From an uncultured Chloroflexia bacterium (lineage in GTDB: Bacteria > Chloroflexota > Anaerolineae > CG2-30-64-16): 64,000 bases of DNA. The notes beneath the pieces were generated by a model that searched no databases, had not been told where the DNA came from, and was given only the letters and a program-made list of their open reading frames with translations. This document shows positions 3,442-7,700 of the stretch, piece after piece (the stretch's first letter is position 1; every line of letters starts with the position of its first letter). The stretch is taken from contig CAWEMM010000007.1 in NCBI GenBank assembly GCA_963810095.1, positions 64,001-128,000 of the forward strand, in the 5' to 3' direction. The position numbers and the translations under genes are program-made.

Positions 3442-4686
3442 ATGAGTAATGCCCACGCGCTGATTGTCGGGATTGCCGGATATCCAAACGTTGCTCCACT
3501 GCCCGACACCGTGTTGGCCGACGCCAACGACGTGGCCGACGTTCTCACCGACCCCAATCTCTGCGCCTATCCGCTCAACCAGGCCTGCCTCCTGCTCGAC
3601 GGCGAGGCGACGCTGCCGAGGCTGCGTTCCGAGTTGGCGAACCTCGCGCAGCGAGCCAATAACGATTCCACCGTCTTCATCTATATCTCGGGCCACGGCG
3701 GCCGTATCGATTCCGGGCCGGCGAAAGGGGAGTACCTGCTGCCCTACGACGTATCGCTCGACCCCGGGGTTGTGCCCCCGCAGATTCGCGCCGAGACGGC
3801 CATGTCGGGCGCCGAGTTCGCCGAAGCGATGGCCAAGATACCCGCCCGCAAGCTGCTTGTGGTCTTCGATTGCTGCCATGCGGGCGGGCTGGGCGCGACG
3901 AAGGATGCGACCGGTCCCGCGCTCAAGGCCGGCCTCTCTGAGGACTACTACGGCCGTTTGGCCGAGGGTCGGGGCCGCGTCATCCTCGCCTCGTGCCGGG
4001 GCAACGAGTTCTCTTACGTGCTGCCCGGCGCCCCCAACAGCCTGTTTACGTCGCACCTGCTGAGCGGCCTGCGGGGGAATGCGCCGTCACCGGCCGGCAT
4101 GATTCGCATCTTCGACCTCTTCGGCTACCTCCAGCCGAAGGTCGTGGGCGACCAGGCCTCGCAGCACCCCATCTTCAAGGCGGAGATCGAGGACAACTTC
4201 CCGGTCGCGCTGTCGGTGGGCGGCAAGGGCGTGCAGCTGCCGCCGCCGGCCCCGCCCGCGGGCGACGGCTTCGCCTACGATGTCTTCCTCAGCTACCGCG
4301 ACCAGGACCCGGACAAGACCTGGGCTCGCAAAACGCTGCTGCCGCGGCTGGAGCAGGACGGCCTGAAGGTGATCGAGCAACGCCGCTTCCGGCTGGGCGC
4401 GCCGATCGTCAAGGAGATGGAGCGGGCAGTGGTGCAGAGCCGTTACACGCTCTCCGTACTCTCGCCGGCCTATATTGACGGGAACTTCACCGATCTTGAC
4501 TCCGTCCTTGCCGAACATCTGGGGCTTGAGAACAGCCAGCGCCGCCTCGTGGCCGTGATGCGGGAGAACTGCAAACCGCGGCTTGGGATGCGTGCGCGCA
4601 TGTGGCTGGACATGACCGAGGATACCGAGTTCGACGACAACCTGGAGCGATTAGTCTACGAGCTGAAGCAGCCGCCAGTTATGTGA
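3442..4686 (+). CDS. Caspase-like peptidase (C14) fused to a C-terminal TIR domain
   Basis: AHALIVGIAGY, YISGHG and VFDCCHAG (His/Cys dyad), SLFTSHLLSGLRG; Pro-rich linker; YDVFLSYRDQD..W..LLPRLEQDGLKV..RFRLGAP..VLSPAY TIR. Confidence 0.88.
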   Translation: MSNAHALIVGIAGYPNVAPLPDTVLADANDVADVLTDPNLCAYPLNQACLLLDGEATLPRLRSELANLAQRANNDSTVFIYISGHGGRIDSGPAKGEYLLPYDVSLDPGVVPPQIRAETAMSGAEFAEAMAKIPARKLLVVFDCCHAGGLGATKDATGPALKAGLSEDYYGRLAEGRGRVILASCRGNEFSYVLPGAPNSLFTSHLLSGLRGNAPSPAGMIRIFDLFGYLQPKVVGDQASQHPIFKAEIEDNFPVALSVGGKGVQLPPPAPPAGDGFAYDVFLSYRDQDPDKTWARKTLLPRLEQDGLKVIEQRRFRLGAPIVKEMERAVVQSRYTLSVLSPAYIDGNFTDLDSVLAEHLGLENSQRRLVAVMRENCKPRLGMRARMWLDMTEDTEFDDNLERLVYELKQPPVM

Positions 4687-4709
4687 AAGGTCGGGTGTGG
4701 GCCAGCAGT

Positions 4710-7700
4710 ATGCCCGACGAACCAACCTACTCGCTGTTCATCATCCATGCGCCGGAAGATGAGGCGTGGGTGCAGTCCTACCTGATCCCGGCCGTGGGAC
4801 TGCCCGCCGAACGCCTCATTCTGTCCTCTCGCTTCCGACTGGGCGCGTCGCGGGCGGAAGAGCTGCAGCGGGCCGTGGAAAACAGCCGCTTCACCCTCCT
4901 CATCCTGACCCCGGAGTTCTTCGAGGATCCCTGGGCCCGCAAGGCCGAGGAACTGGCCGACTACCTTGCCACGCTCGACCAGATGGATCGCATGATCCCT
5001 CTGAACCTCAAGCCGTCCAAGAAGTCGCTGCGGATTGCTCTGCGAGTGGGCCTCGATTGCACGAACCCTGACAACTGGGACGGCGAGGTCGAGCGGCTGC
5101 GCGACCAGTTCGAGCCGGGCGTTGCACAGCCCGCGGAAGAGCCGGACCTTCCGCCGCCCTACCCCGGAATGCGCCCGTTTGAAAAGGACGACGCCAGGTA
5201 CTTCTACGGCCGGACCGCCGAGATCAAGCTCATGCTCGAGACCCTGCGCTGGCAGAAATTCGTGCTGGTGATCGGCGCGTCTGGCTCGGGCAAATCTTCC
5301 CTGATCCGCGCCGGGCTGCTGCCCAAGCTGGCGGACGCGCCGGAGTTCCGGGAGCAGCGCTGGCTGGTGCCCGATCCCATTCGCCCGGGAACGGCGCCGC
5401 TGCAGAGCCTGGCTGCGGGGCTCGGGATCACTTTCCCGCCACCGAATGAGCCGCGCGATGCTGGGGCAGCGACCGGGCCGGCTGCGGAGCTCGGCAAGGC
5501 GGAGCTGGAGGCGATTGACCTGGGCGTCGACGCCCTGCTCAAAAGCCGGGAGCGGGCCACCTGCTGTTCACGGTCGACCAGTTTGAAGAGGTGTTCACCC
5601 AGGGCGATCGAGCCGAGCAGAAACGGTTTATCCAGGCGCTCAAGCGGCTGCGCCAGCACAGGGCGGCCGCGGTGGTCGTCGCAATGCGGGCCGACTTCTA
5701 TGACGACTTGCTGCAGAGCGACCTGTCGCCGATCGAGCCGGGCCAGCGCTTCGACCTGGGACCACTGAAGGGGGCCGGGCTGCAAGAAGCGATCGTAGAG
5801 CCGGCGAAAGCCAAGGGTGTCTTTCTCGACCAGGCGCTGCTGCAAAAGCTGATCGCCGATGCCAGCGACGCGCCCGGTGCGCTGCCCCTGCTGCAAGAGA
5901 CGATGCGAGCGCTGTGGTACCGCCGGCGCCGCAATTTCCTGCCCTACAGTGCTTACGAGGAGTTCGCCGGATCGGGCAACTCCCTGGTGGTTGCGATCGC
6001 GAACAAGGCCGAAGCGACGCTGGCCGACTTCCCCGAGCCGAAGGACGCGCACGTGGCGATCGCTCGCCGCGTGTTCCTGCGCCTCGTGCAGTTCGGCGAG
6101 GGCCGGGCCGATACCCGCCGGCAGCAACCCGAGCCCGCGTTGCAGGCGGTGGAGGACGGCGCAGGCTTCTTCAAGCCGACGCTCGCCCACCTGGTCGACA
6201 GCCGCCTGATCGCCCTGAGCCGGGATGAGGCCACGGGCGATCAGCAGAGAATCGACATCGCGGACGAGGCGCTCTTCTCGGGCTGGCCAACGCTGAAGGA
6301 ATGGATCGGGCAGTACCGCGAGCATGAGGTGCTGCGCCGCAAGCTCGACGGCCGAGCTGCCGACTGGAGCGCAAACGCGCGCTCCAGCCAGCAACTGCTG
6401 AACCGGGTCGAACTCGGCCAGTTCGACGAATGGCGAAAGAAGGACGCGGGCAAAGCAAGTGCCGTCGGCCACAGCTCCGACCTTGACGCGCTGGTTGCGG
6501 CGAGCCGGCGCCAACTGCGCCGGGCCCTCATCTTCCGCATCGCGACGACCGCGGCGCTGGTGCTGCTCATCCTGCTGGCGATCTTCATTTGGAGCGACGG
6601 GCGCCAAAGAGCGGCCGCCACCGAGGTCGCCGCACAGCGTGAGATCGTCGTGGCCAAGGAGGCCGGGTTGGCTACCGCGCAGGCCGGCGAGCGGGCTGCC
6701 GTCGACGCGCAGGCTACGGCCGAAGCCAACCGCAACCAGGCCGTGGCGGCCCGGCAGACCGCCGAGGCCAACCGGCTGCAGGCCCTCCGCAACGAGTCGG
6801 GCGCATGGGCCGAGCTCGCCAGCCAGAACCTGCAGACGGATCCGGTGGCGAGCCTGTGGTGGAGCAGCCGGGCACTGCCCTCCCCGGCCCACCCGCGGCC
6901 CGCCGTGCCGAGCGCGGAGTACCAACTGCGTCTCGCCCTGCAAGAGAGCCTGGAGCAGACGTACGCCGACCTCCACGGGCCGCGGGTCGACGCAAACGGA
7001 CCCCTCATTGCAGTAGGCGGCAGCAGCTTGAGCCTGTGGCCCCGCGATCTGAGTCCTGCAGTCAAGCGGCTGCCCGGCGCGGTCGACGACCTTGGCTGGC
7101 ACACGGACGGCTCGCTCTTCACTTACACCGGGAATGCCCTCACGGTGTGGCGTAACGACGTGGCCTACCGCCACGACCTCGCGGACACGATCGGAGGCGC
7201 AGTCTGGCGGCCCGCCCGACCCGAACTCGCCGTATTGAGCGGCCAAACCCTTTCCTTGTGGCCGTACGTGTCCGGCGAACCCCTGGCGCTCGAGGTGTTC
7301 AGCGACACGCTCGACATCCGTAAACCCTACTTACCCCTCGCCTGGTCACCGACCGGCGACGCGCTTGCCGCATGGGACCAAGGCGGCGCACTCCTCATGT
7401 ATGGCGCGAACCTGCCCGAGGGCGCGATCACGACCACGTTGACCTTGCCCGGCCCTGTCGAGGGTGCAGCCTGGTCGCCTGACGGCAAGACGCTGGTGGC
7501 CTTGCTGCGAAGCGGCGACGCCTTGGCGCTGTCGGGCAACATGAGCCTGAAGGCAGCCCGCCGTTTCTCGCCGTCCACCGCCAGCGACGCCAGCGGGGCT
7601 TTCGGCGGCGTCATCTTCGTCGACGCCGGCCATTTCCTCACCTGGGGCCGCAACACTGCACCGAAGCTCTGGGCGCTCGACGACCTTGCCGCGCCGAAGG

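Follow-up and report, generated by a model that had tools for sequence, protein, structure and literature searches.

Bacterial TIR domains have mostly been studied as enzymes that consume NAD+, and scaffold signalling of the kind seen with Toll-like receptors (TLRs) and MyD88 is usually called an animal trait. What, then, might a bacterial locus do in which two neighbouring genes each carry a TIR domain, one of them joined to a caspase and the other to a presumed sensor? The locus in question lies in a 64,000-nucleotide stretch of DNA (hereafter the window) from an uncultured Chloroflexia bacterium (GenBank assembly GCA_963810095.1, contig CAWEMM010000007.1, positions 64,001 to 128,000 of the forward strand). 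An initial annotation had claimed that its two TIR domains are paralogous, that both lack the catalytic glutamate of NAD+-hydrolysing TIRs (NADases), and that they are non-enzymatic adaptor domains which co-evolve as a cognate pair. The answer we favour, at a probability of about one half, is that the locus is a two-gene sensor-effector conflict module, serving cell death or immunity, in which the caspase is docked by TIR-TIR contact onto a membrane-bound STAND sensor that itself bears a catalytically dead TIR.

Two related TIR domains and their catalytic column

The two genes point in the same direction and are separated by 23 bp. The first (gene A, 3442..4686, plus strand; 414 aa and a stop codon) encodes a caspase-TIR protein, with Pfam scores of 55.5 bits for Peptidase_C14 (cut-off 21.4) and 66.1 bits for a C-terminal TIR_2 domain (cut-off 28). 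Its caspase domain (3454..4200, plus strand) corresponds to residues 39-287 of the 448-aa open reading frame (ORF) and holds the His/Cys dyad that, together with the profile match, marks a caspase-like C14 peptidase: His85 is encoded at 3694-3696 and the pair Cys144-Cys145 at 3871-3876. The catalytic residues are intact, and H85, G86, D143, C144, C145 and H146 are invariant across 45 caspase homologues, so that the caspase looks active. The C-terminal TIR domain (TIR1, 4273..4683, plus strand) is defined by Pfam TIR_2 and by an AlphaFold2 model. Searching a protein collection with gene A returned an identical protein, P0004, and 888 relatives at E <= 0.001; PF00656 and PF13676 occur together in all 120 of the best of these.

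Gene B (4710..9220, plus strand) starts in frame 0 and continues in frame 2 (ORF 5591..9220), and it encodes a TIR domain, an nSTAND1-type nucleoside triphosphatase (NTPase), a predicted transmembrane helix and beta-propeller repeats, an order that is identical in full-length relatives of 1300-1500 aa. The N-terminal TIR (TIR2, 4710..5120, plus strand; Pfam TIR_2 40.7 bits, cut-off 28) passes the gathering score of PF13676, as does TIR1, and the two are the only matches to PF13676 or PF01582 in the whole assembly (6.13 Mb, 88.5% complete). The NTPase module (5157..6388, plus strand) matches PF20703 in two frames with 98.1 + 184.1 bits and has both a Walker A motif (GASGSGKSS, 5274-5300) and, in the second frame, a Walker B motif (LLFTVDQFEE, 5561-5590), all of which identify it as nSTAND1, with one frame change interrupting the gene.

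Downstream of the NTPase lies the single predicted transmembrane helix, LIFRIATTAALVLLILLAI (6527..6583, plus strand; Kyte-Doolittle mean 2.58 over 19 residues). At a threshold of a Kyte-Doolittle mean of 1.9 or more, one hydrophobic 19-mer is found in 43 of 46 TIR-nSTAND1 homologues, within residues 571-723 and directly between the NTPase and the repeats, and only 2 of those 43 have an additional hydrophobic segment elsewhere. The presumed sensor part consists of WD40/PD40 beta-propeller repeats (7448..9217, plus strand; Pfam WD40 67.3 bits, PD40 43.8 bits) and comprises about 600-870 residues; many beta-propeller families match residues 620-1101 of the 1209-aa ORF that forms the second frame. 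Because the NTPase requires cytoplasmic NTP, the simplest reading has the TIR and the NTPase inside the cell and the propellers on the other side of the membrane, and the conserved helix raises the prospect of STAND receptors that take their signals from beyond the cytoplasm. The accounts of nSTAND1 systems that we consulted describe the sensor as meeting invader molecules directly and make no mention of a transmembrane helix.

TIR1 and TIR2 are 29% identical across 130 residues (BLASTP E 3e-18), and comparison of family profiles built from 51 caspase TIRs (profile A2) and 46 sensor TIRs (profile A3) gave an hhalign probability of 100% with E 4.3e-45 and an alignment free of gaps around the active site. 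The stretches RFRLGA..E..RAV..SR[YF]TL and RMWLD / RVGLD pair up in both the BLASTP and the hhalign alignments, and each domain is closer to the other than to any solved TIR. By these comparisons the homology of the two domains goes far beyond chance.

In an enzymatic TIR (NADase or cyclase) the catalytic Glu is expected where helix alpha-C begins. We located this column by profile alignment to TLR1, TLR6 and TLR15, in which the motif is W-C-x-Y-E, and by hhalign. The position is occupied in TIR1 by Asp79 (F75-T-D-L-D79; codon GAC, 4498..4500, plus strand), which sits within the first turn of helix 76-94 of the AlphaFold2 model as assigned by DSSP. In TIR2 it is occupied by Ala79, with Glu80 directly after it (W75-A-R-K-A79-E80-E81; 4944..4949, plus strand, with GCC for Ala79 at 4944-4946 and GAG for Glu80 at 4947-4949, and 4944-4952 once Glu81 is included). 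The profile alignments support this register for Ala79, and in it neither TIR of the window has the catalytic Glu.

At the level of families, however, the two domains part company. In the best 120 of the 888 gene A homologues the Glu column of the caspase TIR reads E116 D3 Q1, with Asp confined to the protein of the window itself and to two relatives that are 76% and 75% identical to it. The nearest relatives include Glu-bearing P0005 (90% identity) and P0006 (85%) as well as Asp-bearing P0004, P0007 and P0008. A set of 75 caspase TIRs, made up of the window and 74 loci from species-representative genomes, gives E71 Q3 D1, with the lone Asp being that of the window; Gln occupies the column in P0066, L021, L022 and L072. 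Judged by this distribution the Asp of TIR1 is a lineage-local, conservative E-to-D change, and since D or Q replaces E in relatives, the residue appears not to be under strict catalytic constraint everywhere in the family. The 48 sensor TIRs that share one ORF with an nSTAND1 match have V11 I9 A8 L6 G5 T4 S3 F2 in the same column, without a single acidic residue (0/48). Another 46 TIR-nSTAND1 proteins, drawn independently from the protein collection, display the pattern W-A-x-F-G-E-Q-L with a small residue at W+4; among 47 aligned rows, the window included, W+5 is E24 or D11. Loss of the canonical Glu is thus, as far as alignment can tell, a family-wide trait of nSTAND1-borne sensor TIRs.

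Much of what the initial annotation had described is borne out by these results. The TIR peptides it quoted from both genes are present as described, the motifs it listed as common to both do align together, and its assignment by eye of Asp in one domain and Ala in the other, with the Glu of the latter shifted by one, is reproduced by the profile alignments. Paralogy stands insofar as the domains are clearly homologous, but the duplication is an old one that places them in separate clades of a joint tree (see below). The absence of Glu from both domains holds for the window and not for the family, in which the caspase TIR generally retains it. Because the families differ in this way, the description of the domains as non-enzymatic is well founded for the sensor TIR and is not established for the caspase TIR.

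Conserved pairing, TLR-like fold and a proposed docking route

We searched one genome for each GTDB species by pattern scan, which confirmed 170 relatives of the caspase-TIR protein. For the best 80 of these 170 loci, ORFs in all six frames were compared with home-made profiles of the caspase domain, of both TIR types and of nSTAND1. A second TIR gene that lacks a caspase domain lies no more than 7 kb away in 64 of the 80 loci and no more than 1.2 kb away in 46; in the intact pairs of L016 and L003 the two genes are 4-7 bp apart. Counting split genes, 48 of the 80 loci have this TIR on a protein with an nSTAND1-type NTPase. A second TIR gene is missing from 16 loci; in 10 of these a flank is truncated on one side, and the remaining six (L021, L036, L044, L050, L065 and L066) have full flanks. 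The hosts of the 80 loci are mostly filamentous and include 27 Cyanobacteria, 31 Chloroflexota, 6 Thiothrix/Beggiatoa-type or other Pseudomonadota and 6 Actinomycetota.

The partner proteins take several forms: TIR-nSTAND1-TM-WD40, -TPR or -FGS (TM, transmembrane helix), TIR-AAA_35, TIR-TPR proteins of about 930-960 aa, a TIR-FGE-sulfatase lectin of 460 aa and TIR-BNR/Sortilin propellers of 557-604 aa. Across all of them the TIR is, by profile matches, the only constant domain. Such an arrangement, with an unchanging TIR on a sensor that varies and a constant TIR-caspase beside it, is what one would expect were the TIRs the coupling element. TIR-FGE-sulfatase genes with no NTPase stand beside the caspase-TIR genes of L052 and L054 (5520-6899, minus strand), and additional partner genes without nSTAND1 are found in L022 (963-2633), L027 (294-2105), L043 (6927-8453, minus strand), L004 (2671-5547) and L015 (8300-11083); the architectures at these seven loci are TIR-FGE-sulfatase, TIR-BNR/Sortilin, TIR-AAA_35 and TIR-TPR.

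Two variations were also seen among the 80 loci. L050 encodes a caspase protein with two tandem TIRs (6863-8722) and has no separate TIR gene in its flanks. In L010 (4811-6931), L014 (4823-6943) and L009 (120-2291) a second, weakly caspase-like ORF (20-27 bits) lies just upstream of the caspase-TIR or the sensor gene, and weakly caspase-like upstream ORFs occur likewise in L049, L056, L058 and L061.

Both TIR families resemble the TIRs of TLRs, MyD88 and Hydra TRR-2 more than they resemble NADase TIRs. The A2 profile of caspase TIRs matched TLR15 (5.7e-21), TLR6 (9e-21), TLR1 (2.5e-19), MyD88 (1.2e-15) and Hydra TRR-2 (9.2e-15), and the A3 profile of sensor TIRs matched TRR-2 (1e-18), TLR15 (1.9e-17), TLR6 (6e-17) and MyD88 (2.2e-10); TLR2 and TLR10 are also among the matches of both profiles in the range E 1e-21 to 1e-10. 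Against the NADase and plant TIRs AbTir, BtTir, TcpB, Roq1 and RUN1, both profiles reached only 1e-9 to 1e-6. The predicted structures agree with this picture. The AlphaFold2 model of TIR1 (mean predicted local distance difference test score, pLDDT, 92.3) had as its best Foldseek matches TLR1 (7nux, template modelling (TM) score 0.79), Hydra TRR-2 and TLR10; that of TIR2 (mean pLDDT 93.1) matched Hydra TRR-2 best (4w8g, TM score 0.81, root-mean-square deviation 2.0), followed by TLR1, TLR6, a MyD88 assembly (7beq, 0.78) and the AbTir filament (7uxu, 0.77). Assemblies of MyD88, MAL and TRAM matched the TIR models with TM scores of 0.73-0.78. In sequence and in fold, then, the two domains lie closest to TLR and adaptor TIRs, as would be expected of scaffold TIRs, and the human scaffold adaptor TIRs are described as having no catalytic Glu (PMC11745336). 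The NADase filament of AbTir, on the other hand, is reported to share its architecture with the MAL and MyD88 scaffolds (bioRxiv 10.1101/2022.05.07.491051), and a TLR-like fold is therefore compatible with catalysis. The fold thus favours, and does not prove, the absence of catalysis.

We propose the following route from signal to protease. The product of gene B would be a single-pass membrane STAND receptor, with TIR and nSTAND1 in the cytoplasm, one helix in the membrane and propellers across it. Binding of a ligand by the propellers would bring about NTP-dependent oligomerisation of the receptor, and this in turn would cluster the receptor TIRs. The receptor TIR, having lost the catalytic Glu throughout its family, would act as a scaffold or nucleator and would draw in the caspase protein by its TIR, in a heterotypic TIR-TIR contact of the BB-loop type, and the resulting proximity would switch on the protease. 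The arrangement would follow the logic by which TLRs signal to MyD88, or else the 'effector-associated domain' (EAD) principle, with a TIR as the coupling module. Since the caspase TIR family keeps its Glu, in most relatives this domain may also be an NADase once assembled; in the TIR1 of the window, where Asp replaces Glu, any NADase activity is probably weakened.

The same observations admit a bolder version, which we put forward tentatively and hold to be possible rather than probable. In it the locus would be a bacterial Toll-like pathway in which a membrane receptor with an outward-facing propeller and a STAND NTPase uses a dead, TLR-type TIR to nucleate a heterotypic scaffold with the TIR-caspase, in effect 'MyD88 plus caspase'.

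A predicted complex of the two domains bears on the contact itself. With the sensor TIR alignment as input and the caspase TIR alignment as partner, the TIR2-TIR1 complex scored 0.56 (0.57, 0.55 and 0.56 in separate runs, with the best of three controls at 0.00); agreement between runs extends to 100% of contacts, and the partner has a pLDDT of at least 80. The mark that this prediction passes is reached by 116 of 157 solved complexes and by 2 of 215 mismatched pairs, and at scores of 0.60 or under by 18 of the 157 solved complexes together with both of the passing mismatches. Moreover, the pass may reflect likeness to known structures, because TIR-TIR assemblies have already been solved. We therefore take the predicted complex as weak support, a small increment only, and it opens the list of points in the following section that tell against docking.

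Points against docking and the rival explanations

A number of further findings weigh against docking by a catalytically dead sensor TIR, and several of them are what rival explanations would predict. Some concern the register of TIR2. A single-sequence phmmer alignment with Brucella TcpB opens a gap of two residues and sets E81 opposite the TcpB Glu, and in the column after the canonical one the 48 nSTAND1-borne TIRs have D20 E12 N6 Q3 and others, so that 32 of 48 are D or E there. The sensor TIR may, on that evidence, have a shifted catalytic residue. Both TIRs would then be enzymes, with E80 of the sensor as the shifted catalytic residue and Asp79 of the caspase TIR still catalytic, and the locus would work in the manner of type IV Thoeris, in which N7-cADPR made by a TIR is described as activating a caspase-like protease (bioRxiv 10.64898/2025.12.03.692087). 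This we consider very unlikely. In three gap-free profile alignments the Glu column of 48 of 48 sensor TIRs is occupied by a residue that is hydrophobic or small, and the +1 position is itself non-acidic in 16 of the 48. By general helix geometry, moving along by one residue rotates the side chain by about 100 degrees. In addition, the only candidate ligand-binding domain of the caspase protein is the TIR itself.

Other findings concern the caspase TIR, whose conserved Glu (116/120 and 71/75) may fit an enzyme at least as well as a scaffold. The canonical Glu is also kept in 15 of 21 partner TIRs that lie off nSTAND1 ORFs. The conserved Glu of the caspase TIR suits an explanation that makes this domain a genuine NADase or generator of a signal, with its assembly templated by the Glu-less receptor TIR; NAD+ depletion or a product derived from ADP-ribose would be a main output, beside or upstream of proteolysis, and the Asp of the window would mark a weakened or altered enzyme. 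The window does keep an acidic residue in the column and has the S10-Y11 and G45 that are invariant in the family, the filament of AbTir referred to above shows a NADase with the architecture of MAL and MyD88, and FxsC/FxsT offers a described case of an active TIR combined with an inactive TIR on an NTPase (preprint 10.64898/2026.10.19.760177). We nonetheless think such an active-inactive pair rather unlikely. Profiles and models are closer to TLR/MyD88-type than to NADase TIRs, D or Q stands in place of Glu in otherwise intact members, the aromatic residue four positions before the Glu is variable (M23 F22 Y10 W5 and others, n=75), and the Pfam scan revealed no NAD-product sensor domain in the protein of gene A or of gene B. 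As for the conserved Glu, TLR1, TLR2, TLR6 and TLR15 likewise have Glu in the catalytic column, and its conservation in the caspase TIR therefore decides neither way.

The history of the pair gives docking by a cognate TIR couple little help. We constructed a joint maximum-likelihood tree of 93 rows, of which 39 are TIRs of caspase proteins, 39 are sensor TIRs and 15 belong to other partners, by a quick method under LG+G4, with branch support from the Shimodaira-Hasegawa-like approximate likelihood-ratio test (SH-aLRT) only and with an unresolved backbone. Caspase TIRs fall into two clades, A (17 rows) and B (22 rows), and sensor TIRs into three, alpha (9 rows, among them the window), beta (26) and gamma (4), each set at SH-aLRT 97-100. 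In none of 39 cases do the two TIRs of a locus cluster together. The notion that same-locus pairs cluster is hence ruled out by the joint tree, in which TIRs sort by position and not by locus, and on this topology the duplication that gave rise to the two types is old. Clades are combined freely: A-alpha occurs 5 times, A-beta 8, A-gamma 4, B-alpha 4 and B-beta 18.

Distance matrices tell much the same story. For the 38 loci in which a single ORF provides a TIR of >= 110 aa together with >= 380 aa of nSTAND1 match (a set that omits the window, whose NTPase is split) the TIR1-TIR2 correlation is 0.44, well under the 0.785 for caspase-nSTAND1; that for TIR2-nSTAND1 is 0.82. When the caspase is controlled for, the partial Mantel correlation between TIR1 and TIR2 is -0.03 (p 0.65), and when nSTAND1 is controlled for it is 0.20 (p 0.003); the former shows no excess co-evolution. 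We see, then, no clear co-evolution of the two TIRs beyond shared history. Reshuffling of the modules appears to have taken place, as would suit a contact between TIRs that is generic and not of the lock-and-key kind. The earlier proposal that the domains co-evolve as a cognate pair is accordingly not supported, given the partial Mantel value and the mixed clade combinations, and the clustering of same-locus pairs is rejected. What remains of the adaptor proposal draws on the conserved pairing, the constant TIR on a variable partner, the TLR/MyD88-like sequence and fold and the weak complex prediction.

In the same 38 loci the TIRs evolve about twice as fast as the domains to which they are fused, with mean corrected distances of 1.05 for TIR1 and 0.55 for the caspase, and of 1.10 for TIR2 and 0.86 for nSTAND1.

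The last group of findings that count against docking concerns the copy in the window. TIR2 has a branch length of 0.92, the longest in its clade; its identity to any other TIR2 is <= 44%, compared with up to 70% for the caspase TIR; and it has Ser at a Gly that is conserved at >= 90%. With the frameshift in gene B added, the copy here might be decaying. The frame change, from frame 0 to frame 2, falls inside the NTPase module, in a zone at 5454..5555 (plus strand) that was delimited with the home-made nSTAND1 profile. The match to this profile breaks off near nt 5454 in the first frame, to resume near nt 5537 in the second; the first ORF accounts for positions 1-89 of the Pfam model and the second for 128-378, and both frames of gene B are open across 5519 to 5768. 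In public reads the best runs contained 0.21 of the sampled words; contigs assembled from them leave 5334-5603 uncovered, and none spans 5496-5603.

Two other genes in this genome are split in a like manner. A CN_hydrolase gene about 3 kb upstream (128-1010, minus strand) is divided between two frames, with Pfam positions 1-171 in ORF 426..1010 and 187-249 in ORF 128..496. A second STAND gene lies on the same contig outside the window (G000:C7:510500-519500, here L083; ORFs 5257..6984 and 552..5591, minus strand) and encodes a caspase fused directly to nSTAND1-WD40, with no TIR and with a frame change just after Walker B. The whole genome has 9 nSTAND1 matches. Because the CN_hydrolase gene and the second nSTAND1 gene are split alike, an assembly indel error is the simpler reading, and the break in gene B is probably assembly noise of the kind that arises from indel errors in G+C-rich runs.

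This bears directly on the possibility that the window holds a decaying remnant, with a real frameshift, relaxed selection on TIR2 and an E-to-D change in TIR1 that is part of the same drift. The lack of an orthologue within the genus would accord with decay: none of the sensor was found in 7 genomes of the same genus (best match 32% identity, E 1.5e-23; 2 of the 7 without any match). The best sensor match among 40 related genomes has 41% identity, and a metagenome scan with the first 277 residues of the sensor gave 368 pattern matches and no confirmed relatives. We down-weighted decay in view of the like breaks in the two other genes, one of them an unrelated CN_hydrolase. Furthermore, there is a single frame change in about 4.5 kb, the remaining frame of 1209 aa is open, and the catalytic residues of the caspase are intact. 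Decay of the locus is in our judgement improbable.

Known systems, significance and neighbouring genes

Docking of an effector by a domain that it has in common with its sensor has precedent. In multicellular bacteria, EADs are described as coupling the components of NTP-dependent conflict systems (Kaur, Burroughs, Iyer and Aravind, eLife 2020, PMC7159879, and 2021, PMC8195603), and the locus in the window resembles those accounts in that the same domain is found at the N-terminus of a STAND NTPase and on the adjacent caspase effector. Other likenesses are the variable sensor part (WD40, TPR or FGS), the nSTAND1 NTPase and the mostly filamentous hosts. In contrast to the EADs as characterised there, which are mostly alpha-helical, the coupling domain here would be a TIR, a domain those accounts list as an effector in that position. 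Also, it is given as a hallmark of EADs that adjacent copies are usually each other's closest relatives (PMC7159879), whereas the adjacent TIR copies here never are (0/39); unlike EADs, the pair is heterotypic and joins a Glu-bearing family to a Glu-less one.

The parallel with TLR-MyD88/MAL signalling begins with what the two TIRs match best in sequence and fold (TLR1, TLR2, TLR6, TLR10, TLR15, TRR-2 and MyD88) and extends to a receptor that is predicted to be single-pass, with repeat sensor and TIR on opposite sides of the membrane, and to a receptor TIR that, like the adaptor TIRs discussed in PMC11745336, has no catalytic Glu. Unlike in a TLR, the domain order is reversed (TIR-NTPase-TM-sensor) and a STAND NTPase stands between the TIR and the membrane, and unlike MyD88 the recruited protein is itself a protease; binding and topology are, moreover, predictions in the present case.

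Two bacterial systems also invite comparison. In TIR-ParA (FxsC/FxsT) an inactive TIR is fused to an NTPase and a role in multimerisation has been proposed for it (preprint 10.64898/2026.10.19.760177). As there, so far as that system is set out in the preprint, a Glu-bearing TIR gene accompanies a TIR without active site on the NTPase component, and the differences are that no ParA module is present here, that the Glu-bearing TIR is on a caspase and that the NTPase is an nSTAND1 with a transmembrane helix. Type IV Thoeris, in the account cited above, has in common with our locus a TIR gene that adjoins the gene of a caspase-like protease. It differs in that the partner TIR here is without Glu (0/48) and that the protease has a TIR in place of a separate signal-binding domain; the locus does not qualify as type IV Thoeris, and a PADLOC scan gave no match to a Thoeris model. 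Its matches on the locus were limited to the generic 'caspase' model and weak PDC-S66 hits on both TIRs. An NCBIfam scan had nothing for gene B, and for gene A the EACC1-type caspase family NF047832 (caspase_w_EACC1) scored 91 bits, under its cut-off of 140. We found no EACC1 transmembrane gene upstream of gene A, where the neighbour (2100-3266) is on the opposite strand, and by these signs the locus is not an EACC1-caspase two-gene system.

Our literature search turned up no published pairing of caspase-TIR with TIR-nSTAND1 and no report of Glu loss in sensor TIRs, and supplementary files, which lay outside the search, may list such architectures. What is available of a survey of cyanobacterial orthocaspases records one TIR_2 fusion among 473 proteins (PMC8283722). 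Set against the literature found, the locus is best regarded as a variation on the EAD and inactive-TIR themes and not as a new category. The caspase-TIR protein and the TIR-bearing sensor nevertheless make up a large and widely spread two-gene family, with at least 888 caspase-TIR proteins in the protein collection and 170 confirmed relatives across GTDB species. If they are a docking pair, they would provide a simple two-protein system for the origin of scaffold TIR assemblies and would show how a TIR platform switches on a protease. Were the Toll-like pathway to prove correct, scaffold TIR signalling would have existed in filamentous bacteria before animals and, to go by the 170 relatives, would be widespread.

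The genes on either side look unrelated to the module, as judged from their translations only. Upstream (2100-3266, minus strand) lies a gene for a secreted protein with LysM repeats, and downstream (9236-15690) are several large secreted or surface proteins that are rich in Gly, Ala and Pro.

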